From: Octopus vulgaris
Lineage: Eukaryota
DNA: 64,000 nucleotides
Direction: 5' to 3'
Assembly (NCBI GenBank): GCA_951406725.2
Contig: OX597818.1
Coordinates: forward strand, 23,126,001 to 23,190,000
In this document: positions 5,660 through 46,158 of the stretch, one piece after another
Layout: each line of letters begins with the position of its first letter
Numbering within the stretch: the first letter of the stretch is position 1
Notes under the pieces: generated by a model
Told to the model about the DNA's origin: nothing
The model's input: the letters and a program-made list of their open reading frames with translations, nothing else
Databases searched by the model: none
Translations under genes and position numbers: made by a program

Positions 5660-6583
5660 TTGGGTCATCCTATAAATAATGTGGTTTTTTTATACTTCTT
5701 TTAATTTTCAAAATTGAGATAAATGAAGTTCTTTTTTAATCTAAAATATACTCTCCTTCATTTTCTACAAGGCCCTTCAATCTATCTGGTAGACTTGTAA
5801 GGCCCCTCTTCCAAAATTCACTTGTCTGTGATGAAAAATACTCCTCCAGTACTGTTCTGACCCCATCTACAGAGTTCATATTTTTCCCGTCCATATGAGT
5901 TTGTAGACTGCAGAATAAAGGATAATCAGATGGAGCAATGTCTGCCGAATATGGCAGGTGGGGCATCGTTTTCCAGTCAAACTGCTCCAGCCTTTTGAAT
6001 GCTATCCTCATTTCATGTGGCCAAGCATTATCCTGAAGGAAGAACACCTTTCATCTCGAAACCAAAGATGGTCATTTTTCTTTTAGCGCTGACTTGAATG
6101 ACTGGTTGAATGACCAAATCCAAGCTTCTCAGCTCATTCCTCAACAGATACGATGGTATAGTGTTCCACCAAGGTTTGCAGAACGTCCTCATCAAGCTCT
6201 ACAGACTTCCAGGACAATGCTCATCTTCTAGGCTGTAGTTTCCGGCTTGGCATTTCTGGAACCACTGTTGACATTGCATATATACTTATTGTCTGATTTA
6301 CATATACTGCATTGATATTCCTCACATTTTCTATTGCATTGTTGCTTTTATTGAACTCATAAAGCAAAACATGCTGAATATACTCCTTTGTCACTTCCAT
6401 TATAACTTTGAAAAAATAACTGTTAAAATCAAACAGCACTCTTCAAAACTTGCACTAAGAATAAGTACAAGGTAAAACTACTACCTGCTTTTATAACAAG
6501 TAGATGCAGGTACTTTATCCCATTCTCTTCTGACTTTTAGTTCATGCAATTGAAAAGACTGCATTATTTATGGTATGACCCAA
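5660..6583 (-). mobile_element. Internally deleted mariner DNA transposon with transposase pseudogene
   Basis: TIRs TTGGGTCATCCTATAAATAATGTGGTTTTT / AAAGACTGCATTATTTATGGTATGACCCAA, with TA on both sides. ORF 6221-6439 matches the mariner N-terminus (HVLLYEFNK). ORF 5736-6047 has QDNAWPH and PYSADIAPSDYPLF (D34D / YSPDLAP region). The central part is missing. Confidence 0.93.
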
Positions 6584-9626: not shown

Positions 9627-10795
9627 TGAGGTGCTCTAGGCCATCCAACATACCACAGCTTCCCTACTGAACAGGTTTATAGTCAGTAAGTACTATTGTT
9701 GCCATTCTTTCAAAATTACCTTTTTTTATTTTGTCTGCTATAGTTTCTCAGTCTCCTTGCAGATGGCTTGAGTTTTGGCATCATTGTACCCACTGCTTTA
9801 CATATGAATGAAAAAGAATTTTTATACCTGTGAATGGTTAACAATCCTTTTCAGGGCTACTGTGAGAATGATAACATGGCCCTTGTCCATGGCTTTTCAC
9901 CCTATTGTTACTACTTTATTTATGTTCTATGGGAAAAATCACTTCTTCCTCAATGTCAATGTTTGCAACTTAATGCAAAAAATATTCACAGAGATGTACA
10001 ACAACAACAAAAAAAAAAGGGAGAGCCTATTAAGACCATTGCCGACTATTTAATACCTGAGCAACGCCAGGTACTCCTGCTAGTGTCATACTAAAATTTG
10101 AAACTTTAAGAATCTATTACACAGCTTCGTCTTCTTCTTCTTCTTCTTTTCCTCCTTCTCCTTCCCTCCTCCTTACATTAATTTGTATGCATGTGTGTGT
10201 GTCTGGTGTAGGGTTCAGGCAGAGTCTGTCTAAGACAACATTTATCTATTGTGTCATTTTTTTTTTGAGATTTGACTGCTTTTTCTTGCAGTTTGAATGA
10301 TCATGTAGAAATTCACTCACGTTAAAAACTATCTCTATGTAAAAATTCCCTTCTCTAATATAACAAGTATAACAAAGAAACTTTCATTTTTTTTAAAAGC
10401 AACATTTATCTATTCTGTCATCTTTTAAAGCAATGGTTTTAGTGAGATTTGACTGCTATTTCTTGCAGTCTGAATGATCATGTAGAAATTCACTAATTGT
10501 TAAACAATCATTATGTAAAAATTCCATTTTCTAATTCTATATATCAAAGAAACTTTCAATGAATAATTGCTCATCTGACACACAGCTGTTGTTAATAAAT
10601 TACATGTGAATGAGATATGGTCTCCTGATGGGTGACAATTGTGACTAAGATCTAACTTACAATTCCATTACATTTCCGAATCATACCAGCATAGGATAAT
10701 GAGGAAAATGAATATATATCACATTTGCCACTAAAAATCTCTGGAAAATTACTGGAGCTTTACATTACTATGAAATTGAGTTTAACCAACAGCTG
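9627..10795 (+). repeat. Source copy of a ~1.2-kb local duplication (second copy 12790-13986)
   Basis: Near-identical sequence; ORFs 9834+ and 13016+ translate almost identically. Confidence 0.95.
10055..10083 (+). mobile_element. Helitron 3' terminus
   Basis: ACCTGagcaacgcCAGGT hairpin, then CTAG|T. Confidence 0.65.
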
Positions 10796-12789: not shown

Positions 12790-13986
12790 TGAGGTGCTGT
12801 AGGCCATCCAACATACCACAGCTTCCCTACAGAACAGGTTTATGGTGAGTGATTACTATTGTTGCCATTCTTTCAAAATTACCTGTTTTTCTTAAATCTT
12901 TTTTTTTATATTTTGTCTGCTATAGTTTCTCAATCTCCTTGCAGATGGCTTGAGTTTTGGCATCACTGCACCCACTGCTTTACATATGAACGAAAAAGGA
13001 CTTTTATACCTGTGAATGGTTAACAATCCTTTTCAGGGCTATTGTGAGAATGATAACATGGCCCTTGTCCATGGCTTTTCACCCTATTGTTACTACTTTA
13101 TTTATGGTCTATGGGAAAAATCACTTCTTCCTCAATGTCAATGTTTGCAACTTAACACAAAAAATATTCAAAGAGATGTACAACAACAAAAAAAAAAAAA
13201 TGGGAGAGCCTATTAAGCAACGCCGGGTACTCCTGCTAGTGTCATACTAAAATTTGAAACTTTAAGAATCTATTACACAGCTTCTTCTTCTTCTTCTTCT
13301 CCTCCTCTACCTCCTCTTCCTCTTTCTTTCACCCCCCCATTCCCCTTCTCCCCTTCCCCCCTCCTTACATTAATTTGTATGCATGTGTGTGTGTGGTGTA
13401 GGTTTCAGGCAGAGACTGTCTAAGACAACATTTATCTATTGTGTCATTTTTTTTTTTGAGATTTGACTGCTTTTTCTTGCAGTTTGAATGATCATGTAGA
13501 AATTCACTCTCGTTAAAAACTATCTCTATGTAAAAATTCCCTTCTCTTATATAACAAGTATAACAAAGAAACTTTCATTTTTTTTTAAAGCAACATTTAT
13601 CTATTCTGTCATCTTTTAAAGCAATGGTTTTAGTGAGATTTGACTGCTATTTCTTGCAGTTTGAATGATCATGTAGAAATTCACTAATTGTTAAACAATC
13701 ATTATGTAAAAATTCCATTTTCTAATTCTATACATCAAAGAAACTTTCAATGAATAATTGCTCATCCGACACACAGCTTTTGCTAATAAATTACACATGA
13801 AAGAGATATTGTCTTCTGATGGGTGACAATTGTGACTAAGATCTAACTTACAATTCCATTACATTTCCGAATCATACCAGCATAGGATAATGAGGAAAAT
13901 GAATATATGTCACATTTGCCACTAAAAATCTCTTGAAAATTACTGGAGCATTACATTACAATGAAATTGAGTTTAACCAACAGCTG
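12790..13986 (+). repeat. Duplicated copy of 9627-10795, flanked by a ~168-bp direct repeat (12626-12793 / 13981-14153)
   Basis: Direct comparison; junction microhomologies TGAG and CAGCTG. Confidence 0.92.
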
Positions 13987-15462: not shown

Positions 15463-17666
15463 TATATAAATGCTTACAAAAATATAAAAAGAAAACATTT
15501 TCAGTCAAAACATGCTTGGTCTGATGAAATATGTTACAATTTTATCAAAACCCTCCTTTTAGAAAAATCACAATCGACTAATATAATTACAATTGATAAG
15601 GTATAATTTTAAAATGAACTGTTATCATAATATTGTACTTTTAAAAAATAAAATTTGTTAATAACAATATATATATCTTATCTGCCTGAATTACATAGTA
15701 AAATAAAGTACTTTTTATCAAATATGATAACATGACCTGCATTTTACAAAATGTTATCAAAAGTAATCTTTCAATACAAGTAGTGTGGATTGTTTTTAAA
15801 ATCAGCTCCAAATAAAAAAGAAAATGGTAATAGCAATCATTAGATCAATTTTATTTAATTTACTATATCTTATCTTTTTCTTTATACTTGTTCTAGTCAT
15901 TGGACTATGGCCATCCTGGGGCAACACTTTGACGGGTTTAGTCAAACAAATCAACTTCAGTACTAACTTTTTAAAGTCATGTACTTAACCCCTCAGTCTC
16001 TTTTGCTGAACTGCTAAGTTGCAGTGATTCAAACAACCCAGCACTAGTTGTTTGCAATGGTGGGAACAAGCACAAACCCAAAGGCATACTTACATCCATA
16101 TATGTACAATGGGCTTCCACACAGTTTCTGTCTACCAATCCATCACAAGGCATTGATCAGGCCACAGCTATCATAGAAGACACTTGCTCTTTGCCATCTT
16201 CTATTTTCATTTATACTTCCAAAGTCATTTTGCAATAGGAGCTTAGTAAACATCTCGCTCACGTTTTCCTTCCCATAACTACTTTTCTCTAGAATCCACA
16301 GGAATTCAAAATGAACTACACAAGCTTCATCTAATTGTACTTTCCCCCAAACTGTATAAATCAAAGAATTTTTCACCATGGCTTTCTTTTCCTCACATTT
16401 ATAATACCATTTTCATTATTCCAGTTGCCAACAAGATGGTGAGCTGGCAGAATTTGTTAGCATATGGGACAAAAATGCTAAGAAGCATTCTTCTGATTTT
16501 CACAACCAGAAAAATGGAATTTTGGGGTATTATTTATTCTCCATAACATATATTTCATTTGCTAATAGGAACGACAATGATCTATGTGTTAGATAGACAT
16601 GTAAGAAATTTTATATTAGAAAATCTTCAGACCTGTCTGTAAATCTTTATTGTACATACATACTTACATACATACTCTTTTACTTGTTTCAGTCATTTGA
16701 CTGTAGCCATGCTGGAGCACCACCTTTAGTTGAGCAAATCGACCCCAGGATTATTCTTGGTAAGCCTAGTACTTATTCTATCGGTCTATTTTGTTGAAAA
16801 CGTAACTTGTCGTTAATTGCTCGAAATACGAAGTAGAAAAACAGCCGGCAACTGATGAAGGGTAGTTTTTTATGTTGCTTGTCTTGTTTTCCATTTGTTT
16901 ATTTCGTTGTTCGCAAAAAAAGGTTCGTATTTCATGTTGTTTATGTTTTGTGGTGTCCTGTGCCCATATATTCATGTGTGTATTCATATATATATGTATG
17001 TGTGGAAGCCCATTGTACATATATGGATGTAAGTATGCCTTTGGGTTTGTGCTTGTTCCCACCATTGCAAACAACTAGTGCTGGGTTGTTTGAATCACTG
17101 TAACTTAGCAGTTCAGCAAAAGAGACCGATGGGTTAAGTACATGACTTTAAAAAATAAGTACTGAAGTTGATTTGTTTGACTAAACCCGTCAAAGTGGTG
17201 CCCAAGGATGGCCATAGTCCAATGACTAGAACAAGTATAAAGAAAAAGATAAGATATAGTAAATTAAATAAAATTGATCTAATGATTGCTATTACCATTT
17301 TCTTTTTTATTTGGAGCTGATTTTAAAAACAATCCACACTACTTCTCGTATTGAAAGATCGCTTTTGATAACATTTTGTAAAATGCAGGTCATGTTATCA
17401 TATTTGATAAAAAATACTTTATTTTACTATGTAATTCAGGCTGATAAGATATATATTGTTATTAACAAATTTTATTTTTTAAAAGTACAATATTATGATA
17501 ACAGTTCATTTTAAAATTATACCTTATCAATTGTAATTATATTAGACGATTGTGATTTTTCTAAAAGGAGGGTTTTGATAAAATTGTAACATATTTCATC
17601 GGACTGAACCCAAGCATGTTTTGACTGAAAATGTTTTCTTTTTATATTTTTGTAAGTATTCATATA
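15463..17666. repeat. Inverted duplication, ~660-bp arms (15463-16123 and 16999-17666)
   Basis: Arms are reverse complements with scattered substitutions and one small indel. Confidence 0.95.
16801..16867 (+). ncRNA. Hammerhead-like ribozyme, non-circularly permuted, copy A (U16.1 mutated)
   Basis: CGUA(A)C-UUGUCG ... UUGCUC-GAA-AUACG ... CGGCAA-CUGAUGA-A-GGGUAG. Stem I UUGUCG/CGGCAA, stem II GGGUAG/UUGCUC, stem III CGUA/UACG. Confidence 0.6.
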
Positions 17667-17676
17667 TATATATATA

Positions 17677-18440
17677 TGGAAATAGAACTACTCAAGCTGA
17701 GAGCTAAGACGAATGAAGAAAAAGTAAAAACCATAGACGAGGAAATCAACGAAGAAGTCATCAAACTAATAGACGACATCAATACTGAAATATTACCAGC
17801 ACTATGGAATGAAGAATGTAATAAAGAGGAACTTAAGTCCCTCCAACGATGGGAAAAGAGCGCCATCTGGTTTTTAGATTATGAAACCAACTTCAAAAAT
17901 GAACACATATCCAACAACCCCTTCATAAAATTAAGTAAATCAAAACCAAATACCAACAGAACGGAACAACCACCAAGAAATCCTAACACACTCTACACCA
18001 GAAAAGTACACCTAAAACACACCCCACACTACCTACACCAACCCCAAAACACATACAGAGCCTCACCACACCAGTTCGAAAATAGACATACCAACAGAGC
18101 AGAACAACCACCAAGAAATCCAAACACACTCTACACCAGTAAAATACATTTAAAACGCACCCCACACTACCTACACCAACCCCAAAACACTTACAGGGTC
18201 CCACCACACCATTCCACGAACCCAAGAGCCACAACATACAATACTATAAAATACAATCGACATAACCAAACCAAAACGCTACTACCAAACATCCACCCCA
18301 GGAACCTTTTTGATAAGGTTCATTTCAGGAACTGAAACATGTTATAATGTATATATAAAAATTAAAAATTGTATAATATAGCAGCATTTTCGAACTTCAT
18401 TTTTTACAAATATATACCTACTCGTATACGAGCTAATCCT
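17677..18440 (+). mobile_element. Penelope-like element fragment: ORF piece with a 120-bp tandem duplication, joined to a PLE 3' terminus
   Basis: 18306-18415 is near-identical to 23426-23535, the end of the GIY-YIG element. The ORF repeats TNRTEQPPRNPNTLYT...HQPQNTYR twice. Flanked by (TA)n. Confidence 0.65.
18306..18360 (+). ncRNA. Short-stem-III type I hammerhead (U3:A8 variant), stem I 5' strand truncated
   Basis: UUGAUAA-GGUUC-auuucag-GAACU-GAA-ACAUGU-U. Confidence 0.55.
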
Positions 18441-18447
18441 ATTATAA

Positions 18448-18531
<84 letters not shown>

Positions 18532-18635
18532 TATGTAGGTATGTATGTATATTTATTTATTATTTATACATATATATACGTGTATAATGTATATATACAC
18601 ATGTGTATGTGTCCATGCATACACACACACATGTA

Positions 18636-18851
18636 CGGGGGCGCTGAAAAGTTCTTGGCTTTGGGTAAAAGAAAATACAGGAGGTTCAGTTAATTATGAT
18701 TTCATTTAACATATTTCCATCTCAGATTCAAACACTTATTGCAGCAATCTTTCATTTTTTCTAAGCCCTGTAAAAGAACTCGGAAGGTTGGGTCTCCAGT
18801 CATGGCTTTCGTGTATACCCTTAAGCCCAGGTACTTTTTTGCACCCCTTCA
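18636..18851. mobile_element. Mariner-type MITE (related pieces at ~4305-4500, ~11696-11765, ~34712-34928)
   Basis: TIR CGGGGGCGCTGAAAAGTTCTTGGCTT / AAGCCCAGGTACTTTTTTGCACCCCTTCA, with TA flanks. Confidence 0.75.
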
Positions 18852-18974
18852 TATATATATGGATGTGTTTTCGTTTCTGGTTAAAATCAGTTTGACGATA
18901 TAGAGTGTTGTTTGTAGAAAATATGAATTGATCTTGCAAAAAGCTAAAATTATTCATCTAACATGATATGAATA

Positions 18975-19751
18975 TGTAGTGAATCTTGCATGCATGAAGT
19001 GGATTCGATCCACCACAGCCAAATTTAAATTAACACAGCTACAGAACTTTTCCCACGATGGAACAATGGTTTTTCTCTTGCGGCAGTTTTACATCTTCCA
19101 GATACCTTTAGCTAGGCCGAAATAATGTCTTCACCACTTGACCCTTTCTAACCTCTTCTACTTCACCAAAAGGTAGAATAGATAACAAGACCACCAACTA
19201 AATCTATTGTTCTCAATGATATATGTATCCTTCTAGATAGTTATATAAACCAGCACATCCCAAGCAAAAATCAGTTTTAGTCACCAGCCAGTGACGACGA
19301 CTCAACCAAGTTCGTCACAGTCGTGACAAACTCGTGATTTGAGAGAGCTAACACCAGTTGGTGAACTGACCACTAGAATCATGGAAGCAGGCAGACAAAA
19401 CGGCCAGAGGGAAAAGAAAGACAATGTCCCACACACTCTCACTAGCCCCAATTCTGTTCTCTCACAACATCATTCTATCTGTCTCAGCAATTACTCCTAA
19501 ACAATGAAGAGAACTCAAACTTTACTTCGCAACCTGCCTGTCGAAGCAAGGTATTGTAACGTAACGGTAAATAAACTCTTCCTTAAAACTTCATGCATTG
19601 TTCATCTTTCACATTCTACAACCTGCAATTATAATAACACATTTCTATCGTCACAACTGCTGACCATAACATCATCATAATAATGTTTACCAATCAAATT
19701 TCACACGTTACAATTGGTAACCATACCAAAATCAAAATAAAACCCGTTACA
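18975..19751 (+). mobile_element. Solo LTR, Gypsy-type family 1
   Basis: TGTAGT...GTTACA termini, 4-bp TSD AATA, TATA-like TATATAAA and AATAAA; four homologues elsewhere in the window. Confidence 0.88.
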
Positions 19752-20395
19752 AATAAATATCTACATTAGGTTAGCAAGCACCGTACTTAAAGCAGTAAAC
19801 TATCAACAAGTGTAGTAACCACTTACAGCTAAGTAGGTGAGACTCTTAAAAGGTAAGTGTTTTGGTTGTCATTACATTGTAACAATAGTGACATAAACTA
19901 GTAATTTTTTGGCTGAATATCTAGTATCACATAAACTTAACTGATAACAGGTCTGTCACGTGTTCAAATATTATTAATAATTCATGCATAGATACATACA
20001 GAGTTGACATGAACTCTTGTATGTTATCATGAGTTTTTTGCAGACATTAAGGAAGGAATGGAGTAGAAAGTAAAATAGGCTACAACCCAGCACCGAAATG
20101 GAATCGAAATAATTTTTTTCTTAGACACGAGGATGCTGATTTACAGGGATGGGACAGTGGGATTATATATCGTCATCACTATCCTCCTCATCATCATCTT
20201 CATTGTCACCATCATCATCATTGTTATCATCGTCATCATTTTATGCCTGCCTTCCACGTGGGCATCAGTTGGATAGTTCATCAAGATTCAGCATTTTAGA
20301 GGGTCATATTATGCTCCAGCACCTCAATGTTGGCATAGTCTCTATGACTGGGTAGCCTTTCATTGTGTATGTATGTGTGTGTGTTGATATATATA

Positions 20396-21307
20396 TATAA
20401 TAACAAAATAATAAATAAAACATATGCATATATACATACATATATGTACGTACCTACATCTATATGTATATATACATGCATATATAGGTACAGGACACAA
20501 AAAAAAAAAACGTCGAACACAATGAGAAACGAAAACAAAAACAGAACTATGGGAACGGACATTTTTTTAAACAACGTAAAAACAGGGTACAAGACATACA
20601 ACACAAGGAAAATTCCCCTTCTTCAGCCGCACCGTTTCATCTACTCCGTGTTTCGAAGGTAAAGGCGAGACACGACTTCAGTGAAGCGGTCCTTCCCGCA
20701 AATCAAATTAAATAAAATTTGAGATTTTTTGCGGAGGGGTAAAAGTGGTAACAAAAACAGGACAGTAGAAACAATATAAGACAGTAAAAATACAAATAAA
20801 AATAAAAACAGTAAACGACAGGACAAGTAGAATAACAGTAATACGAACGTTAGGGGCTGTTAAGCCGAACGAAAGAAAAATGTTTTGAACGCATGAGAAC
20901 AACGGCATAAGAAAGGGATAGGATGCCGTCTATACTTGTTGAAGGCTGTGGTCAAAAAGACAGAAGGACTCTGGTCACATGTCAGCGACGAGAGAGAGGA
21001 GGAGGAGGAGGAGGAGTAAGAGAAAGGGAACGGTAAAAGCGAGAGAATAGTAGAGAAAACCAGAAAGAATGAAGAATGAGCGAGAGGGGGACAGTAAGGT
21101 TAGAAAAATAGAGACAGTAAGGTTAAGAGTGCGCATCATAATTATTAAGATAAAACTTACTTGGAAGAGGATGCGTGGTGTTTCATCATATAATAACAAA
21201 ATAATAAATGAAACATATGCATATGTACATACATATATGTACGTACCTACATCTATATGTATATATACATGCATATATAGGTACAGGACACCCCAAAAAC
21301 GTCGAAC

Positions 21308-21312
<5 letters not shown>
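20396..21312 (-). mobile_element. Non-coding PLE-type terminal element with partial tandem repeat (20396-20523 repeated at 21189-21312)
   Basis: Tail shared with 16798-16998, 24283-24602 and 30900-31505. Inserted in (TA)n. Contains a hammerhead motif and a CAA|GTAAGT donor-like site (minus strand, 21160). Confidence 0.6.
20615..20690 (-). ncRNA. Hammerhead-like ribozyme, non-circularly permuted, copy B (intact core)
   Basis: CGUGU-C-UCGC-cuuuac-CUUC-GAA-ACACG-(16 nt)-GCGG-CUGAAGA-A-GGGG; predicted cleavage after GUC at 20669. Confidence 0.7.
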
Positions 21313-21374
<62 letters not shown>

Positions 21375-21492
21375 ATTATTATTAATTTAATGTATTAATT
21401 GCCTATAAATTTTTATAGCATGCTGACTAGATAAAAATCATTAACGTGATTTTCATCCTTACATTCTTTTATCTTTTATGTATTGATAAATA

Positions 21493-21587
<95 letters not shown>

Positions 21588-21637
21588 GAAATACCTGTAC
21601 AACATCTCCAAACCTTCCAATATATATATATATATAT

Positions 21638-21703
<66 letters not shown>

Positions 21704-21715
21704 CGACACACTAGA

Positions 21716-22546
21716 ATGAATGTCCCTTTTTGTTTAGCTAGAAGGATTTGCACCATAATATCAGACACAAACACCCGACACACACGTCTCCAGGAACTTA
21801 GAACCACACTCACAAATAGAAACTATCCACAGCCCCTAATAGACAGTGCAATCCAACGGGTACTTAAATTAAGTATAGAAGACCTGAGACAAACAAAACC
21901 AAAAAAGAAAGAACAATTAAAAACCCTTCCCTACATCTCTACACACAACCCACTCAACAATGAGGCCTTCAACACCATACTACAAAGCACAGCCCTACTA
22001 AAGGGAGACCCAAAGATGAACCGGATCCTCGAAACACACACGATCATTAAAAGTAAACGGCAACCAAAATCCTTGAAAAGGATTTTAACCCAAGCTACAC
22101 TGCACTCAACATCAACCACAAAACCAGCAGTTAGAAAATGTGGAAGGCCCAACTGCGGAATCTGTGTCATCTTGAAAGAAGGATCAGAATTTATACTGGA
22201 ACAAGGCCACCAGTTCACCATTAGAACAAACTTCACCTGCGCATCAGAAAACTTAATTTACGTCATAACATGCGCAGGCTGCAATAGGCAGTATATAGGC
22301 CATACAAAAAATAGCTTACGTAACAGGATGGCGGTGCATAAATCACAAATTAGAAACCCTGATTACCGCAAAATACCGGTCAGCGGACACATAGATAGAT
22401 GTGCTGGAAATGTAAATCCGAAATTTACAACCAACCCGCTCTATAAATTCAGTGACAACGCAACCTTCACACAACGCCAAAATAAAGAACTATATTTCAT
22501 AAAAAAATTTAGACCAAGTTTAAACACCCTGGGCCAGGAATACTAA
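21716..22546 (+). CDS. Penelope-like retroelement ORF, 5'-truncated: end of the RT thumb, Cys linker and GIY-YIG endonuclease
   Basis: LARRICTI...L.NRNYPQ (PLE RT C-terminus); CGRPNCGIC; NLIYVITC..C..QYIGHT...LRNRMAVH (GIY-YIG); ELYFIKKF.PSLN. Confidence 0.92.
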   Translation: MNVPFCLARRICTIISDTNTRHTRLQELRTTLTNRNYPQPLIDSAIQRVLKLSIEDLRQTKPKKKEQLKTLPYISTHNPLNNEAFNTILQSTALLKGDPKMNRILETHTIIKSKRQPKSLKRILTQATLHSTSTTKPAVRKCGRPNCGICVILKEGSEFILEQGHQFTIRTNFTCASENLIYVITCAGCNRQYIGHTKNSLRNRMAVHKSQIRNPDYRKIPVSGHIDRCAGNVNPKFTTNPLYKFSDNATFTQRQNKELYFIKKFRPSLNTLGQEY

Positions 22547-22714
22547 AACAAAAGATAAGTCCTCCGAAAAGGAGAACCAAATTTCACCACGGCCGCTACT
22601 TCAAACAGACACTCACTCTGACGGAAATATGCCTTAGTAAAAAAAGGGAAAAAAATTCTTTCGTGCAAATCTGACCCTGATACATACGATACAGCTAAGG
22701 GTCAGACCCGATTC

Positions 22715-23090
22715 TGATTGGTCAACAAGTTGATGACGTCTAGCTCTGCTAGAATGGACAGGATACAAACAGGGGACAGTCATTAGTCAGAATATTGATG
22801 ACGTCCTTTTCTGCTTGAATAGTCACCTAACAAGTACAGACAGGGGACAGATCTAATGTAGCTATAAGTCGTGATTGGGCAGAATCTGAATGACATCCCG
22901 CTATGCTTGACTAACGAAGCGACTGGTCAAGACAGGAAACAAACAAGAGGGAGTTATAATGCACCGATTGGTCAAAATAATGATGACGTCCCGTTCCACT
23001 TGATTAAAGCCAACTAACGAAACGATTGGTCAAAACATTGATGACGTCACGCTACGCTAGATTGACCACCTAACAGGCATTATAAAACCA
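22715..23090 (+). promoter_or_regulatory. Array of five ATTGG-N12-TGACGTC modules followed by a TATA box
   Basis: Modules at ~22717, 22782, 22874, 22967 and 23025 (two carry one mismatch); TATAAAA at ~23082. Confidence 0.55.
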
Positions 23091-23409
23091 AGCATTTCAC
23101 AAAAAATCACTAGAACCACCCAGCGAACTTCCACCATGGGTCATCACAATTGCTTAAGGTAAAAATGAATTCCTCGCTCTTTCGGAAACATCAATCTTCT
23201 GTATTGACCGCTTTCCACCACTTTGATCTGTTTTTTGTATTGAATACGTATCGCCACCGTGGGCCACTGCATCGAACACTTTGAAATATACTTCAAACTA
23301 TATATCAACTATACATGAACTATATATCAACTATACATGAACTCTAAGATGTCTGACTCCGTTGTGTATTATAAATGAATTTCTTGTGTTTGACGGCATG
23401 AGCTGTCTC

Positions 23410-23480
23410 TTTTTATATATAACTTTTTTTGATAAGGTTCATTTCAGTAACTGAAACATGTTATAATGTATATATAAAAA
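23410..23480 (+). ncRNA. Short-stem-III type I hammerhead ribozyme (U3:A8 variant)
   Basis: Stem I UUUUUAUAUAUAACUUUUU / AUAAUGUAUAUAUAAAAA (two U-U mismatches, one bulge); core UUGAUAA; stem II GGUU/AACU; GAA; palindromic ACAUGU; predicted cleavage after 23462. Confidence 0.62.
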
Positions 23481-23569
23481 TTAAAAATTGTATAATACAG
23501 CAGCATTTTCGAACTTCATTTTTTACAAATATATATATATATATATATATACATATATACATATATATC

Positions 23570-23845
23570 GTCTGTCGTTAGATGACGTATGAAAGTTCGG
23601 CAATTTCTTGCCAAACAACCACACAGATGATTTGTTTGTAGTAATCAAATGTTTGTGTTCCCATAAGCTCACTTCCTCCTGTACAGGAGGACCATGTGCC
23701 GCATGTCAGATGACGAAATGATCACAAAGCAATCTGAAATGCAATGTTTTGCTCAAGAACGCAACGCAACACACGGTCAGGGAATCGAAATCACGATCTC
23801 GCAATCGTGAGTTCAACACCCTATTCGCTAAGCTATGTACCTCCA
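23570..23845 (-). mobile_element. tRNA-derived SINE, older family (relatives at ~14608-14915 and ~58085-58370)
   Basis: A/B-box-like head (GATTTCGATTCC) and CTTGAGCAAAACAYTTCATTTCA body shared among copies. Confidence 0.6.
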
Positions 23846-23852
23846 CATTATG

Positions 23853-23938
<86 letters not shown>

Positions 23939-23982
23939 TGTATGTATGTATGTATGTGTGTATGTGTATGTATGTTTGTATG

Positions 23983-24037
<55 letters not shown>

Positions 24038-24243
24038 TTTCACTACCAGTGACCTAGCATGTATAAAAAGTCAATAGACAACATATTTTCCATATGAAAT
24101 TAGTGTACATTTAAGCACAAAAGAGGCGACCCTTAACAGGCAGCCTTACATGCTAGAAGAATTTTGGACGTTTTGACTGCTCCTTCTAGCATGCAAGGTT
24201 GCCTGTTAAGGGTTGTCTCTTTTGTGTTTAAATGTACACTTAT

Positions 24244-24288
<45 letters not shown>

Positions 24289-24502
24289 TATAATATAAAT
24301 AATATATAAATATATGCATACATATATGTACATAGCTACATATATATATATATATATACATGCATATATGGGTACAGGACATCAATAAAACATGGAACAC
24401 AATGAGAAACGAAAACATAAAAACAAGAACATAGAAACGAACTTTTTTTCGAACAACGAAAAAAACAAACGGAGAAACGAGACATACAACATAAAGAATT
24501 TT

Positions 24503-24578
24503 CCCTTCTTCAGTTGTCCCTGTTTCAGCTACTCCGCTTTTTCGAAGGCAAAGACAAGACGCAACTTCAATGAAACAA
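24503..24578 (-). ncRNA. Hammerhead-like ribozyme, non-circularly permuted, copy C (stem III damaged)
   Basis: UUGCGU-C-UUGUCUU ... CUUC-GAA-AAAGCGG ... GGGACAA-CUGAAGA-A-GGG; 7-bp stem I. Confidence 0.55.
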
Positions 24579-24621
24579 TCCTTCCCGCAAATCAAATTAA
24601 AGAACGTAAAGATGGATGAAA

Positions 24622-24798
24622 TACCTATTTCTTTACTACCCACAAGGGGCTAAACACAGAGAGGACAAACAAGGACAGACAAACGGATTAAGTCGATTAC
24701 ATCGACCCCAGTGCGTAACTCGTACTTAATTTATCGACCCCGAAAGGATGAAAGGCAAAGTCGAACTCGGCAGAATTTGAACTCAGACTGTAACGGCA
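24622..24798 (-). mobile_element. SINE family B, 5'-truncated
   Basis: Reverse complement of 46390-46600. Confidence 0.85.
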
Positions 24799-25414
24799 GT
24801 ACCCGTGGAAATTCCACGGTAAATACGAAATTTTTTAGGTGGTTATAAGTTTATACAGTCATAAAAATTAGTTCCTTTATAAACTGTATATTCTGTATTA
24901 TTTTCATTTAAAAACACTTTTCACTTGGATAAAGTTGTAATTGAAGGAGCATGATTTTTCTCTCACCATTTCAGAGATTCATTTATAAATCTAAGAGCTT
25001 CACGATAATTACAGAGAATATTCATGTCATTCACATTGTAACATTCGACCATATGTTTATAGTTTTTTTGATGTTCTCTCTCATTTTCATTTTACATTCT
25101 GTCTTGAATACGTTCTCTTATCTGTTGTAAATATTCACTCTATACTCTTTGATGCTCCCGTGCTTGTTCTAATGATTTGTCCCACTGCTTCTCTTTATGT
25201 TGTTGCTAATACCATCTCATTCTTTCTCTTGTTAGGTTACATCGTCTGTCATCCATAATGTATAAACAAATTTCGTTTTTCAAGCGAGCAGACGATAAAT
25301 AATTGCACTTGTGCACATGCGTTAAGTGACAGGCGATATATAAAAAAATTAGTTTAATTTTAAAAATGCAAGGGAGATAACGATTTAGATATACTTATGT
25401 CACCTCAACATAGA
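24797..25414 (-). mobile_element. Putative non-autonomous Helitron
   Basis: 3' hairpin CCGTGGAAATTCCACGG (~24802-24819) with the CTAG replaced by the adjacent SINE; candidate A|TC 5' end at 25414. Confidence 0.45.
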
Positions 25415-25584
25415 TCTTTGTATTTATTTTGAAATTCCATATAGTATCGCGTAATCTTCTGGATTCTCATCCAAAACAGAGATTAGTACCAACATTCCCA
25501 AGTGGTTCGCGTGAATAAATGTGGAGATCTCTTCTATACGAAACCATTTGTTGCCTTGATAATCCACAAATAAAGCATATATAC

Positions 25585-25616
<32 letters not shown>

Positions 25617-25636
25617 TTGTGTGTGTGTGTGTATGC

Positions 25637-25669
<33 letters not shown>

Positions 25670-26104
25670 TGTATGTATGTATGTATGTATGTATGTGGCG
25701 ATCCTTCGGTATACGTACCGTAAGTACCGGCAGTGGCTTTGTTTACATTTCTGAAGATAACAGAAACCCTTTTCTCCCACCCCTAACCCTAACACAAACC
25801 CTAACCCCCTCCCCCATATATATATATAAAAAAAAACTTCCAAACACTGCTGCTAACAGACAACTGAATGTCATAAACACAGCGACCTATATTGCCCGAT
25901 TGCACATAGAATGGCGAAAGTGAACGGATAACTGAAACTAACAGCTTGTTGTCTGACTGACAATGAAAAATATTGCTCAAGGCAAAAGAGATTTGCACAA
26001 ATTGTCAACTTGTACAAATAAAACCTACAATATCAGCTACGCATAAACGAATATTTTCTCTAGCGAAACAATCAGACATATCTTTCGATATATATATATA
26101 TATA

Positions 26105-26421
26105 TCACCGTGATCACCGTGATCACCGTGACCGACCAGGTTATCAGATGTTGTTACACATCGCTGGTCACAATGCGCTTCGCATTGTTTTAGCCTTCAA
26201 ATGACGCCACCCCGCTGGCTAAGCGAGCAGGCCAACAGAAGAAAGAGTGAGAGAAAGTTGTGGCGAAAGAGTACAGCAGGGGTCGCCACCACCCTCTGCC
26301 GGAGCCTCGTGGAGCTTTAGGTGTTTTCGCTCAATAAACACTCACAACGCTCGGTCTGGGAATCGAAACCGCGATCCTACGACCGCGAGTCCGCTGCCCT
26401 AACCACTAGGCCATTGCGCCT

Positions 26422-26424
<3 letters not shown>
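26105..26424 (-). mobile_element. tRNA-derived SINE family C, tail type 1 (CACGGTGAT repeats)
   Basis: GGAGGCGCAATGGCCTAGTGG A-box and GGTTTCGATTCC B-box; partial plus-strand copy at ~39228-39390. Confidence 0.85.
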
Positions 26425-26495
<71 letters not shown>

Positions 26496-26619
26496 TGTAT
26501 ATTGAAGAGTTACAAAAAACGTCCGCAAGTAAAATAACTTCAGTTAAAAAGCCTTTACTCCTGTGAATATCTGAAAGCTCTGTGTCTCTAATCTCTTAAA
26601 CGGTGAAGAGAAAGATATG

Positions 26620-27060
26620 CTATCATATGCGTATGGAAACATATTGTTGAAGGCCGATAGGCGCTCGCTATGAAAAAACTCAAGTGACAATGCTGAATAG
26701 GAGTTGCTTTATTTATATAGTATCATAGAATGGAAGAGTCAAGGTTCCCACGCCTAGTCTTATTCAGTGAGTTCCCTTCAAGGAAAACAACATCTTCGAA
26801 GATGCAAGGACCATCTCAAAGCAACCCTGAAAGACCCAGGGATTAAATCTAAATTGTTTGAAACATAAGTCCGAGAGCGTAGCAAGTGGCGATGTTCCAT
26901 CACAATTAGAACCAAAAACTTCGAAGCCACCAGAAGAGAAAAAAAGAAATCAAACGACAAGAGAGAAAGGCTCGACAAAATAAACATCGTCCTCCACCAA
27001 CATTACCATGTAGTCAATGCCATCGACTTTTCTATGCAAGAATTGCTCTACTTAGTTATC
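26620..27060 (+). mobile_element. Degenerate RTE-clade LINE 3' fragment
   Basis: Broken frames read RMEESRFPRLVLFSE...CKDHLKATLK...RERSKWR, typical of the RTE ORF C-terminus. Confidence 0.65.
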
Positions 27061-27880
27061 AATAAAGCGTTCAGCAAAGAAGTTGAATTCTTGGATACGA
27101 GATAAAGCCGACGTCGGATCATATGTTGTCAAATAAGTTCAGAGACTGAGAAAAAGCTATATATACGTTCAATGCCTCGTTTTCATGATATATAAATATA
27201 ATGAAATTATGGAATTTCACTTTCATCACAGTTTTCTATCGCCTTTTCAGGCCACTAAACTACATATTTAACCTCTTTTGTATTTTTAGCGAAAGATATG
27301 TCTGATTGTTTCCCTAGAGAAAATATTCGTTTATGCGTAGCAGATATTGTAGGTTTTATTTGTACAAGTTGACAATTTGTGCAAATCTCTTTTGCCTTGA
27401 GCAATATTTTTCATTGTCAGTCAGACAACAAACTGTTAGTTTCAGTTATCCGTTCACTTTCGCCATTCTATGTGCAATCGGGCAATATAGGTCGCTGTGT
27501 TTATGACATTCAGTTGTCTGTTAGCAGCAGTGTTTGGAAGTTTTATTTGTCATTGCCTCATTTCTATATCGTGTCCAGCTTGACTTCAATTGTCAGAAAT
27601 TGAGCTATGAAAGAACTGATATTGTTATTTAGCCGCAGGTCAAATCTGATCGAAGCACACCCAGTTTTGATAAGAGTATCTAGGACTATAATATTTAATG
27701 TCCTGGATAGACTTTAAACTGCGTCAGATAGTTGGACCCTGGTTCGAGAGTTCCAGAGTTTTGAAGCGTGTGGAACCATTGTTAGTTACTGTTGTCTCTA
27801 GGTGAACTCTATCTGGGAGTAACAGCTCGTATCAGGAGTAACAGCACGTATCAGAGTCCTAGATTTGGGTTAAATAGCAT

Positions 27881-28110
27881 GTTAAGTTAAGTTAAGTTAA
27901 GTTAATTTTTTTGGCTCAAAAAGCAAAAGCAAGGCCATGTAGGGGGACATGGAGTTCTGTACAGGGAGGGTGTTCATGCAAAGAGTTCAGGCCATTTCTG
28001 GTCAAGAGAGTCTTTGAACCGAGCGGTCGTCGGCATCTTCACTACCTCGTCCGGCAGCTTATTCCACGGATCCGCAACCCGGACGGAGAAAGCCCCTCTC
28101 CTTCGATTGT
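27881..28110 (-). mobile_element. CR1-clade LINE 3' end with (TTAAC)n tail
   Basis: Minus frame reads AFSVRVADPWNKLPDEVVKMPTTARFKDSLDQKW*. Confidence 0.8.
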
Positions 28111-29278
28111 AACTACCCGAACCTGGGTATGTTGAAATCATGGGATGCAGTATGGGGGATGTGAACTATTTCAGCAAATGAGCGGATAGACAAACAACTG
28201 CCAACGGCCAGGATCAACAAGCTCAGTAACCGAACTACTGATATTATCTGTTGTCGTGGCGTGCGCAGACGAGATGTTCAGCTAGAAAAAGACCGAAGTG
28301 ACACTAATCCTGGCCAGACGTTCATGCCGCATCGATCGATCGGGACATCTAACGTGGAAGAGTTTCATTGGTCACCAACAGAGTTGATTTGAGGGAGATT
28401 TGTTAGTTAATTGTAGCAGAGTCATCATTGATTCGAAAGAGTTAATGTCAATGCCAATGTCATTGATATATCTTTCGTCAATAATATTGATTTCTGATGA
28501 GATGTTAACTTTGCTGATAGCTATTAAAAGTTATATCTCCTGAAATAAATTTACCTAGTAACTTGACTGATAAAATATTGGTTGATAGAAGAGATTATTG
28601 TGTCTACGACCAGTGGTTAGAAAGTGTACCGCCTGGGGAGCTCCTAAGTTTTTTACCCTCCTTGGGCCTTCAAGTCTTCACAGACTTATACAATAGACCA
28701 AAAAGTTCCTCACTCCTACTAAAAAAAAAAGCGTCGCCCAGGGTGGATCTCTCCTCTCACCAACTTCGCTACTATCTACAACTTCAAAACGTACATATCA
28801 GTAACGGTATATGCTAATGGTGGATGAGGGAAATAAATCTTCATCAAACTCCATTTCAAAGTTATTTTCCTCCTTAGTTGTTTTTCGAAATGGTTTCTTC
28901 CAATCTTCCGCACAATATAGTCGAAGACAATATCAAAATGTATGTTCATTATTCTTATCTTTCGAACTTTGTTTAGTTATGTCCCAGTTCCCAGTTCATG
29001 TGTTGGCAACATTCTAATTGTTTTCAGGAAGTTTGACAAATTATTTGCATGCAAGAACAAAAATAGGCAAACCATTTCTCAAATAAAAAAAATTAGAAAT
29101 TCAACATCTCCATTTGAGAGAATAGCATCCACGTATACAACTCCGAGTATAAGCATACAACTGTGACAGCAAGTACTTTTACCAAAATTCGAGTAGAACT
29201 GAATATTAACAAGAATTCGTTGAAGCCAAGCAAAACATGCTGATCATCTAGTTGCACAAAATGTTATTATACAACTTG

Positions 29279-29828
29279 GGGAAAGACATCCGTCCCCACC
29301 CCATTTTCTCCCAAATTTGCTTATTCAAAATTGTTTTGTCAAAAATCCCTGTTTTCGGATACGGAGGTTCCGGAAAATTGCCCAAAATCGGCATTGTGAA
29401 AATCCCCCCTTCCTCCAACTTCTTCAATTTTGACTTTTTTCCGCAACACTAACCCTAAAACCCCAACCCTAATCCTAAAACCGTAACCATAAGTACAGAA
29501 ATGTTTTGAAATGTTTGTTCGAATCCTGATGTCCGTATTTTCCCCCATATTTAGAAAAGAAAAAATTCTTTTTAAAAAATTTTACAAAGATTTTTGGAAA
29601 TTTATTCAGAATCATAATCTCCGTAATTTTCCGCATATTTTGAAGAAAAAAAAATTCTGAAAAAAGTTTAAAATGAAGGAAATGGGGGTGAGAGGATGGT
29701 AATTTAGAAATGTTGATTTTTGCCAATTTTTTTCGAGATTCGTATTCCCCGTAGCCGAAAGGGGGAGGGTGACAAAAAAATTTTTTTTTAAAGGGTGGTT
29801 TTTGCTGGGGACGGGCGGAAGTCTTGCC
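29279..29828. mobile_element. TIR MITE with internal CCCTAA-like repeats
   Basis: Imperfect TIRs GGAAAGACATCCGTCC / GGGCGGAAGTCTTGCC; degenerate TSD CAACTTG/CTACTTG. Confidence 0.55.
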
Positions 29829-30578
29829 CTACTTGGCATCAGCTTTTATTTAAGACGCATGATTTTTTTCTTCGTTTTTCAACTTAATAAAATTCTCTCT
29901 ATTTGGTGAATTCTTCTTGGTACTCGTAGCTTACTTAGCGCTCAACCATAAGGAATGTACTTAACAGTGTTACTAAAGCTTCCGGTTTCAGTCCTTCCAA
30001 ACGTTTGGCTCCTACGGGTTTTCTCCAAGCTTAATGTTCACTCCATCAAAGAAACATTCCTCTACCTTTCCATGAATATATTTGTAATCTTATGAATGCA
30101 TCTTGTACATCTTATACCTGACAAGCAATAAAAACTTTTAAAAAAGTTTCTCATTGTCTATCAAGCATTTATTGACTTACCGTACACATAAATTAAATTG
30201 TTCTTAGTTAGACTCAGCGGTATTTTCTGACTGTATCTTGCTGTTCACAGCGTGAGCTCTTTTACATCATGTAAATATTCTTTCCGCATAAAGAAATAAC
30301 TCATATCTGAAAGAGTTAAACTAATAAGCTAAAACAGATGATAGTTCTTAGGAATAAAGGCAATCTTATTACGTTCCATAAAAAAATTAATTCAAAACGA
30401 AAATTACTTGACCTACTTAATTTCTACAAATATGTGTAATACGCACAAATGGAATGTAAAACAACAACTGATTTAAAATATACTTCTTTGCGATGATTTA
30501 CTATTATTTTTTATGTGTAGTTGTGAAATAGAGGTGTATGCACTCTCCCGATCTCTACGCCTCTGGAGTCCCTTATAT

Positions 30579-30670
30579 TTGTCTTCAGCTTTAGAATCTG
30601 ACGAGCCGTCCATGGGGTTAGGCCCTTCATGAATGTGAAACCATTGGTCACTCTACGACTGGACAGAGAC
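30579..30670 (+). ncRNA. Type I hammerhead ribozyme with intact core
   Basis: UAGAAU-CUGACGA-G-(long stem II including CAUGGGG/CUUCAUG)-U-GAA-ACC-auu-GGU-C-ACUCUA; predicted cleavage after 30649; ~100 bp upstream of a (TA)n tract. Confidence 0.72.
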
Positions 30671-30748
30671 TTAACTGCGTATAAATACATTACTGCTGTA
30701 TGCATTAGAGTGTGCTTTTTTTTGGAGGGGGGGGATATGACACATTGA

Positions 30749-30808
<60 letters not shown>

Positions 30809-31160
30809 TAAAAAACAAACATGGCGGAAAGGGACGGAACGAAGTGAAAATTCGAAAAATCGAAAATCTAAACGAACCCGACGCGAAGCGCTGTCAGACA
30901 ATAGTGTAATAAATAAAATATATGCATACATACAAACATATATGTACGTACCGACATCTACATGTATATATACATGCATATATAAATATATATACGTACA
31001 GGACACCACAAAAAGACGTAAAAATCAACAGAAACGGAAACGGAAAAGCCATTTTGTTACAACAGAAGGACAGAGACGTGGAACAGGACGAAAACGAAAA
31101 CGGGAAAAACATTATATACAGCAGAAAAATGAGGTACAGGACATGCTACACAAGGAAAAA

Positions 31161-31224
31161 TCCCATTCATCAGCTGCCACTATCAGACATAGCGTGTTTC
31201 GAAGGCAAGACAGGACACGTCTGG
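31161..31224 (-). ncRNA. Hammerhead-like ribozyme, non-circularly permuted, copy D
   Basis: CGUGU-C-CUGUC-uugc-CUUC-GAA-ACACG-(14 nt)-GGCAG-CUGAUGA-AUGGG; predicted cleavage after 31214; stem II weak. Confidence 0.65.
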
Positions 31225-31542
31225 TCATGCTACGAGATAATTAAAATAAAATAACCTCGCAGAGGGGTAAAACGAGCAAGAAAAAAATGTAACACAAAAA
31301 AGGACGTAACAAAGAACTGCACAAAAAAAAAATACAAGAAAAAAAAATACAAAAATAAAAGATACATGTACAAGAAAATACAAAACGAGAAATAAATTAC
31401 AATACGAGAAATCAAAATAAACAAGAAAACAAACGAAAAAGACGAACGAAGGCCTTTGTGCTGGCAGGGACGAGAGAGGTAACAGGCGAGCGCTGGGAAA
31501 CAATATATATATATATATCTGTAGCGTAGACTCTCTCCCATT

Positions 31543-37332: not shown

Positions 37333-37637
37333 TTATCAATCTATCTATTTATCTATCTATCTAATATAACACACACACACACACATATGGGGAGAGAGAG
37401 AGGGAGAGAGAAGGGGAGAAAGAGATTAGTTACAGGATTCTTTTATTTGTTTCAGTCATTTGACTGCGGCCATGCTGGAGCACCACCTTTAGTCGAACAA
37501 ATCAATCTCAGGACTTATTCTTTGTAAGCCTAGTACTTATTTTATCGGTCTCTTTTGTTGAACCGCTAAGTGACGGGGACGTAAACACACCAGCATCAGT
37601 TGTCATACGATAGTGTATGTACGTGTTTATATATATA

Positions 37638-45557: not shown

Positions 45558-45771
45558 GTGTGTGTGTGTGTTTGTGTGTCTGTGTTTGTTCCTCAACATC
45601 GCTTGACAACCGATGCTGGTGTGTTTACGACCCTGTAACTTAGCGGTTCAGCAAGTGGGACCTATAGAATAAGTACTAGGCTTACAAAGAATAAGTCCTG
45701 AGTTTGATTTGCTCGACTAAAGGCGGTGCTCCAGTATGGCCGCAGTCAAATGACTGAAACAAATAAAAGAA
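45327..45771 (+). mobile_element. SINE family A with internal (TATC)n
   Basis: Full head-to-tail homology to 34114-34527. Confidence 0.9.
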
Positions 45772-46158
45772 TATATGGGTGCTTTTACATGGGTATTTAT
45801 TCGTTTTCGATACCCTCATGAGAATTTCTGCTGGCCGAATAGTTAGGGTTGTTGGCAAGAAGCAGTTAGCAATCCAGCATCATGGTTTCACAGTATTCCA
45901 GGCAGAGTCTAAACGGTCCAGGCAATCGATATGCGAATATAAAACGCAGGAAGGCGTAGTTCATCAGTGTATGTGTGTGTGCGTGTGAAGGGCTTTCATT
46001 CAGTTTCCGTCTACTAAAACCGCAAGGTATTTGTTGGCCCGGGACAATAGTAGGCATAAGTGCAGGAAGGAAATTTGCTATTGGGTGCAAACTCAAGTCC
46101 AAAACTTTTTGCAAACATGGTCAATTTTTTTTCAATCTTAATATCTAAGCCAACACTA

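Follow-up and report, generated by a model that had tools for sequence, protein, structure and literature searches.

An opened-core candidate hammerhead in decayed copies of a non-coding octopus retroelement

The 64,000 nucleotides of Octopus vulgaris contig OX597818.1 (assembly GCA_951406725.2) from position 23,126,001 to 23,190,000 of the forward strand, which we call the window and number from its first letter, contain four motifs with the core words of the hammerhead ribozyme, and they raise the question of what these motifs belong to, how they are wired, and whether they cut. The four motifs do not have the circularly permuted order of hammerhead types I-III; their order is instead a cleavage block (S), a GAAA block (G), and a CUGANGA block (C). 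A first-pass annotation had proposed four motifs in this X-Z-Y order, A on the plus strand and B, C, and D on the minus strand, and on re-reading the core in the window we found all four at the places named, in the order of a non-circularly permuted hammerhead of type SGC. The four motifs are decayed copies of once-mobile subfamilies of one non-coding retroelement. Our best explanation overall, which we consider probable, is that this decayed repeat carries a hammerhead with an opened core that likely cuts itself and was likely copied by a Penelope-like element (PLE) of Naiad type. The copies and their parts are as follows.

16786..17001, plus strand: copy A (subfamily A), a 5'-truncated fragment of the non-coding unit
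16823..16826 and 16852..16858, plus strand: copy A GAAA (G12 at 16823) and CUGAUGA (C3 at 16852)
20395..21299, minus strand: copy B element, one whole unit of ~793 nt ending in (TA)n
20691..20695, minus strand: copy B leader GAAGG, the putative stem II 5' strand, G10.1 at 20695
20683..20689, minus strand: copy B, 5' strand of the helix joining stems I and II, partner at 20638-20632, one private mismatch
20665..20674, minus strand: copy B block S, with the stem III 5' strand, GUC triplet, and stem I 5' strand; C17 at 20669, predicted cut between 20669 and 20668
20647..20659, minus strand: copy B block G, with the putative stem II 3' strand CCUUC, GAAA at 20654-20651 (G12 at 20654), and the stem III 3' strand
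20620..20630, minus strand: copy B block C without a stem II strand, with the stem I 3' strand and CUGAAGA at 20626-20620 (C3 at 20626)
24290..24604, minus strand: copy C, a 5'-truncated unit with its leader (24584-24580) kept and stem III damaged; GAAA at 24543-24540 (G12 at 24543), CUGAAGA at 24513-24507 (C3 at 24513)
30799..31502, minus strand: copy D, a 5'-truncated unit extending ~100 nt beyond the usual 3' end; C17 at 31214, GAAA at 31200-31197 (G12 at 31200), CUGAUGA at 31173-31167 (C3 at 31173)

The bases at position N7 in copies A, B, C, and D (U, A, A, U), the 15.2-16.2 pairs (C-G in B and D, U-A in A), and the stem I pairs UUGUCG/CGGCAA, UCGC/GCGG, UUGUCUU/GGGACAA, and CUGUC/GGCAG, all reported in the first-pass annotation, match the sequence. 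Compared with the majority of 30 loci of the respective subfamily, copy A has a private lesion at 16805 (U16.1>A) and copy C in stem III, as had been stated, and a private indel not listed before cuts stem I of copy B to 4 bp. Also missing from the earlier list was the 5' truncation that removed the leader of copy A, and in copy D the decisive lesion proved to be a 10-nt deletion near 31232 that took out the leader, not the G>U change proposed after the core. The coordinates given for the motifs had ended before the leader (20695-20691 in B and 24584-24580 in C). The 5' junction of copy A is fused into a repeat resembling a short interspersed element (SINE), which has many copies in the window (e.g., 16674-16790, 37437-37611, and 45598-45772), and on either side of copy A and this SINE lies an inverted duplication (15519-16123 and 16999-17604) with two blocks that are 98-99% complementary.

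The carrier is a non-coding retroelement unit of 750-920 nt, and its four subfamilies represented by copies A-D are mutually ~57-71% identical. The 3' end of the unit is fixed ~250-340 nt downstream of the motif and mostly runs into (TA)n, the upstream (5') ends are ragged, and most copies are 5'-truncated monomers. The longest copies loop back into the 3' end of the unit itself, mostly at periods of 753-918 nt; thus ~110 nt of its own 3' end precedes the whole unit in copy B as a partial tandem, and one locus (L055) holds a dimer whose two motifs are separated by 811 nt. Pyrimidines predominate in the sense strand, and the six long unit copies that we read contain no coding-like frame or convincing open reading frame (ORF). 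This anatomy fits the insertion signature of PLEs, i.e., (TA)n targets, 5' truncation, and partial tandems (PMC8557442), from which we infer reverse transcription from ribozyme-sense RNA. A whole-unit junction profile over 681 kb of flanks and arbitrary stretches yielded few informative copies and many microsatellite matches. The earlier description of the copies as decaying insertions of once-active subfamilies holds for decay and mobility, "once-active" applying to mobility only, with ribozyme activity a prediction from sequence.

Along the unit the blocks follow one another as a leader (the putative stem II 5' strand), the cleavage block, the GAAA block, and the CUGANGA block. The subfamily majorities (30 loci each) keep CUGANGA, GAAA, and a GUC or AUC triplet, in fact all core bases together with Watson-Crick stems I and III, and cleavage triplets in general were mostly GUC, GUU, GUA, AUC, and AUA. 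The first-pass annotation had named loss of the pairings from the subfamily consensus as its refutation, and this outcome did not occur. Stems I and III flank the cleavage site and covary in pair tables of 13 variant groups, which bears out the compensatory changes that the first-pass annotation had seen in these stems. For stem II we examined 183 distinct GAAA...CUGANGA instances, of which the 139 with an intact cleavage block were kept and 44 dropped. In 99 of the 139, a leader 5-mer, mostly 21-26 nt upstream of the cut, pairs 5/5 by Watson-Crick rules with the five bases before GAAA, compared with a mean of 3.7 and a maximum of 10 in shuffles. This pairing is specific to families (68/79, 15/25, 4/6, and 9/15 within the own family, and 2 matches in cross-family swaps), and while the first pair, G10.1-C11.1, is G-C in 13 of 13 variant groups, positions 2-5 vary on both strands; hammerheads conserve this G10.1-C11.1 pair (PMC4209133). 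Copies that are related do not count as independent, and the independent support comes from four different helix sequences here and from other phyla. It is very likely on this evidence that stem II is made by the leader.

A further, covarying helix joins stems I and II: 91 of 104 copies score at least 5 for it, versus 44 when shuffled, with sequences that are family-specific. Its 5' strand begins 0-3 nt after the leader (the search was limited to 0-3 nt), and its partner lies just 5' of the core-side strand of stem I, ending mostly 6-8 nt before C3. Its location is thus that of the interaction helix by which SGC and CSG RNAs connect stems I and II and which they require for cleavage (PMC10085705). 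Since the leader covaries and the joining helix follows the leader, the layout would be that of type CSG opened between A9 and G10.1, and the RNA is predicted to fold as a monomeric pseudoknot equal to such an opened CSG. The metal-binding groups at A9 and G10.1 should remain intact if the chain breaks at this step. Variation at the step is on record, as an extra base usually sits between 9 and 10.1 in PLE hammerheads (PMC4209133) and the ribozyme of chrysanthemum chlorotic mottle viroid (CChMVd) tolerates one (PMC3705267). With the chain opened at this step, the predicted four-strand layout is outside the six published orders, which assume that CUGAnGA and the adjacent paired strands are inseparable (Eckert et al. 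2023, PMC10085705).

The whole 2.8-Gb genome was searched with reversed patterns as control. First-look candidates numbered 3,164 for A, 3,676 for B, 3,419 for C, and 1,766 for D, so that all four motifs belong to large subfamilies. The GAAA...CUGANGA pattern had 9,356 exact matches (control 43), and a pattern requiring the leader, GAAA, and core of the CCUUC class all to be exact had 3,583 (control 0). By eye, 8 of the first 100 listed pattern matches seemed unrelated. Several unrelated matches stem from another repeat family (L164 and similar loci) whose hammerhead is of standard order (type I-like), with CUGAUGA followed by an additional A. A pattern sample contained 42 copies with a cleavage block, and 28 of them satisfy every helix test. 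The first-pass expectation of an abundant motif was right as to thousands of copies genome-wide; its basis, four copies in 15 kb, reflects a local excess and not a typical density, as the genome mean of 3.3 pattern matches per Mb predicts 0.21 per 64 kb versus 3 in the window, which is thus ~14 times denser. A profile search of 40 arbitrary 10-kb stretches gave 5 matches (1 whole motif, 3 partial, and 1 flank only; reversed control 0), and the extrapolated genome total is ~35,000 fragments (95% range 11,000-82,000). In the window itself, a strict descriptor had 2 matches, compared with 0 in 10 shuffles, and an Rfam scan gave 84 matches at E-values up to 1 without any hammerhead family, the alignments displayed being microsatellite matches. 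The unit family was also present in sequence contigs from four organisms. A young subfamily with identical motif copies occupies seven places among the matches listed (G000:C1:19839076, 19839912, 24719928, 30632978, 33566654, 58716088, and 62957213), one pair being 836 nt apart, and this identity suggests recent mobility.

In the flanks of the sampled loci we found a family unrelated to the unit that has GGCUG as leader, CAGCC as its partner, and the same opened-core layout (located at L036, L046, L071, L123, L168, and L169). It had 10,722 genome matches (control 12), and the matches listed include several pairs at distances of 700-855 nt.

Naiads encode an N-terminal GIY-YIG domain and a C-terminal reverse transcriptase (RT), occur in octopuses, and have been reported without canonical hammerheads, some of their consensi being tagged HHR_core or HHR_half_core (PMC8557442). 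We searched the published consensi (PMC8557442, File S5) for four core words and read the matches by eye; our counts are minimums, as words split between lines were missed and the CTGACGA list covers 15 of 23 places. The leader layout, with a leader starting with G, was seen in at least 11 of the 54 consensi, from five phyla (Naiad_Bfor, Naiad-3_Chem, Amil, Aacu, Anas, Naiad-2_Movir, Plae, Obim, Ovul, one unnamed element in supplement part 19, and likely Esco), with a leader helix of 4-6 bp that has one mismatch in Aacu and one in Esco. Intact type CSG was seen in at least six nematode Naiads (Naiad-1, -2, and -3_Nbra, and three in supplement parts 13, 15, and 16). An arthropod Naiad (part 17) seemingly has the order S-G-C, in which a long insert is present and three extra bases precede a tail-made stem II, and several other Naiads (parts 16-19) have the CCCCUGANGA word in a different structured context.

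In the octopus genome searched here, the Naiad-type motif had 411 matches (control 0), ~100 nt or less from the 3' end and often followed by TA repeats, and the published Octopus Naiad consensi match these sequences. At one locus (L213) the motif follows a frame matching the published Naiad C-terminus, and at 7 listed places, including the query, matches to the Naiad RT tail were seen by eye ~0.8-1.9 kb upstream on the same strand. Two Naiad-like tail fragments, identified by eye from their agreement with the published Naiad_Obim consensus, had no significant family in Pfam. It is only in this separate 411-match family that a Naiad ORF tail precedes a related motif. A Naiad is probably the helper that mobilised the unit, to judge from the architecture and target that they share.

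Whether the motif cuts was approached through the 5' junctions of 66 unit copies selected with a pattern in which the cleavage block is optional. The leader is kept in 41 of these and 25 are truncated. Of the 25 junctions, 20 fall within the 16 positions that start at the cut and go downstream, and 5 within the 26 positions on its upstream side, a 4.9-fold higher density of 5' ends immediately 3' of the predicted cut than immediately 5' of it (p = 4e-4). Such a step at the predicted cut is suggestive, being what one would expect if some templates had already been cut. We regard it as quite likely that the motif cuts its own RNA.

The life cycle we propose starts from a tandem or read-through transcript, which would fold its leader first and then the pseudoknotted core in cis. 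Cutting after NUH would release unit-length RNA from long tandem transcripts, and this RNA may be circularised, as has been proposed for PLE hammerheads (PMC4209133). A Naiad-type protein would then nick (TA)n and copy the RNA from a fixed point ~250-300 nt downstream of the ribozyme, the RT mostly stopping early and sometimes running beyond one unit, which would give the 5'-truncated and the more-than-unit copies. In copies B, C, and D, the stretch formed by G8, A9, and the tail is identical to the leader, and we speculate that by replacing the leader it could switch the core off after cutting.

Several observations weigh against this account. The 5' junctions show no peak at the scissile bond, as inspection by eye also indicated: 3 of 25 are within 1 nt of it, and 11 of 25 lie 5-7 nt downstream of it, which TA microhomology or stalling at the fold could explain. 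The strict descriptor found no intact copy in 400 kb of arbitrary genome. A tested precedent for a break between A9 and G10.1 was looked for in the literature and none was found. As to the helper, cephalopod Naiads are said to have been inactivated long ago (PMC8557442), yet the young unit subfamily has identical copies at seven of the places listed, a canonical GIY-YIG PLE also sits in the window, and by BLAST there is no similarity between the units and the Naiad 3' untranslated region, so the link to Naiad is drawn from shared architecture and target only. In a lizard PLE, moreover, hammerhead cleavage was not needed for insertion in vitro, where hammerhead mutants did not impair it (PMC11167929).

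This last result would suit a fold of hammerhead descent that serves a retroelement protein as a recognition or processing signal, with little or no self-cleavage, and so would the run of most copies through the cut site (leader kept in 41/66) and the poor cleavage of animal PLE hammerheads (PMC4209133). A mere signal would leave unaccounted for the retention of the core, U16.1-A15.1, G10.1-C11.1, and a non-G at position 17 across variant groups of families that are only ~57-71% identical, the retention of the same features across five phyla (read by eye), and the enrichment of 5' ends 3' of the cut. We therefore think it unlikely.

Alternatively, the motif could be a plain type SGC hammerhead, in which the tail that follows CUGANGA forms stem II with a single base bulged, and the leader pairing is an alternative, perhaps inhibitory, structure. 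A tail-made stem II is what the first-pass annotation had implied in pairing the post-CUGANGA tail with the strand before GAAA. Such a stem is possible in the families with an AGGG tail, and it tells against the opened core that a register with an extra A there gives a G-C pair and mostly wobbles (G-C, then G-U, then G-U or G-C, then G-C or U-G). A bulged base at this step is usual in PLE hammerheads (PMC4209133), and in copies B, C, and D the G8-A9-tail stretch reads as the leader does. However, tail and partner do not covary: almost every unit copy has AGGG as its tail, whereas the presumed partner varies with the upstream leader, and three registers tabulated for the 13 groups contain mismatches or wobbles. 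In the CAGCC family the tail already mismatches at the first pair, in the Naiad family it pairs poorly, and by eye it is unable to pair in Naiad_Amil, Naiad-3_Chem, and Naiad-2_Movir. The helix between stems I and II comes after the leader rather than after the tail. Among five registers tried for a tail-made stem, none was common to the families, and the idea of an additional A following A9, as in CChMVd, was given up when the covariation of the leader emerged. The stem II of the annotation is thus unsupported, and a plain type SGC seems to us quite unlikely.

The blocks could also act only between two tandem units, as a dimer or a fold in trans with ordinary topology. Tandem pairs do exist (L055, at 811 nt, and the listed pairs at 700-855 nt), and animal PLE hammerheads have been proposed to act as dimers (PMC4209133). 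All partner strands of the motif, however, lie within ~80 nt of one unit with short conserved linkers, its stem III has 4-5 non-palindromic pairs, unlike dimer-type motifs, and the published SGC and CSG RNAs cleave in cis (PMC10085705), making this explanation very improbable. Chance resemblance within a decayed repeat, for which one could cite the lesions in every window copy and the lack of an Rfam hammerhead, is hardly credible given the conserved core, four covarying helices, independent families, and near-zero controls, and is already refuted by the intact, covarying subfamily majorities.

The window holds other mobile-element remains. A canonical PLE with a C-terminal GIY-YIG domain (Pfam E-value 7e-7) is preserved in part at 21710-22546 and 23396-23530 (plus strand) and is followed by a type I-like hammerhead with core UUGAUAA, in which C3 and G8, positions that pair in the hammerhead core, are both changed to give a U-A pair. 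Most of this motif, core included, is repeated at 18307-18411, with a diverged copy at another locus (L212). We rejected this PLE fragment as a source of the four motifs, as it lies on the opposite strand and has a type I-like motif of its own. A frame at 17625-18335 (plus strand) with a 138-nt internal duplication is joined to the second type I-like motif; it has no Pfam match, and we take it to resemble the N-terminal region of a PLE. Broken PIF1-like helicase frames at 50976-52513 (minus strand; Pfam E-value 3e-43 for 51926-52510) are probably a Helitron remnant, and a fragment at 5736-6050 (minus strand), without a Pfam match, presumably resembles the C-terminus of a mariner transposase. 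Lastly, 9721-10556 and 12903-13747 form a direct duplication ~3.19 kb apart with reported blocks 95-98% identical.

Taken as a whole, we lean towards reading the opened core as a seventh natural hammerhead wiring that is active, present in tens of thousands of octopus copies, and the 3'-end ribozyme of Naiads across at least five phyla, with nematodes carrying the closed CSG. If this is true, non-circularly permuted hammerheads are common in animal retroelements and not a metatranscriptome rarity, and the premise of the six-order list, that CUGAnGA is inseparable from a stem II strand, no longer holds. It would place non-circular permutations in animal genomes, where Eckert et al. found none, explain the HHR_core and HHR_half_core tags, reopen the conclusion that Naiads spread without a ribozyme, bear on the open role of PLE hammerheads, and supply natural, covarying examples for probing how the core tolerates a break at A9/G10.1. 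As standard descriptors and Rfam miss the motif, invertebrate ribozyme counts are probably too low. In the literature covered, mostly outside subscription papers, we found no report of the opened layout or of permuted hammerheads in animals: in the available text, PMC13725137 merely cites Eckert et al. and a giant squid paper has Rfam hammerhead-1 matches only, and Octopus, Eukaryota, and Metazoa are absent from the supplement text of PMC10085705, whose alignment figures are outside this text search.

Among known systems, the unit resembles the animal non-LTR (long terminal repeat) retrozymes (Li, Clavereau and Pollet 2026 preprint, 10.64898/2026.07.22.740005) in being non-coding, at most ~1 kb long, with one hammerhead, and found as monomers and tandems, and a Penelope-type origin is proposed for retrozymes; it differs in that retrozymes are defined by a type I hammerhead, which the unit's is not, and the available text of the preprint describes type I models only and no cephalopod sample. 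With the type I and minimal hammerheads of canonical PLEs (Cervera and de la Pena 2014, PMC4209133), for which processing of tandem precursors to circles is proposed, it shares a position near element ends, G10.1-C11.1, and a variable 9/10.1 step, but those are circularly permuted and dimeric with a weak palindromic stem III, whereas the order here is pseudoknotted and stem III is full. The likeness to Naiad PLEs (PMC8557442) extends to (TA)n targets, 5' truncation, partial tandems, and the ribozyme layout near the 3' end, although the window units encode no GIY-YIG and RT ORF. Type SGC (HRIMA-1 and variants, PMC10085705), which its authors had not found in the genome of any known organism, has the same S, G, C order and full core, and links stem I to stem II by a few bases with a helix joining their other sides; unlike the octopus motif, which is present in thousands of copies in an animal genome and has its putative stem II strand 5' of the cleavage block, it has this strand directly after CUGAnGA. 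Closest in wiring is type CSG, known from two metagenome examples (CSG-1 and CSG-2, PMC10085705): moving its strand of stem I and CUGANGA to the 3' end yields the octopus layout, the difference being that CSG keeps A9 linked to G10.1, whereas the window motifs appear opened at that bond.

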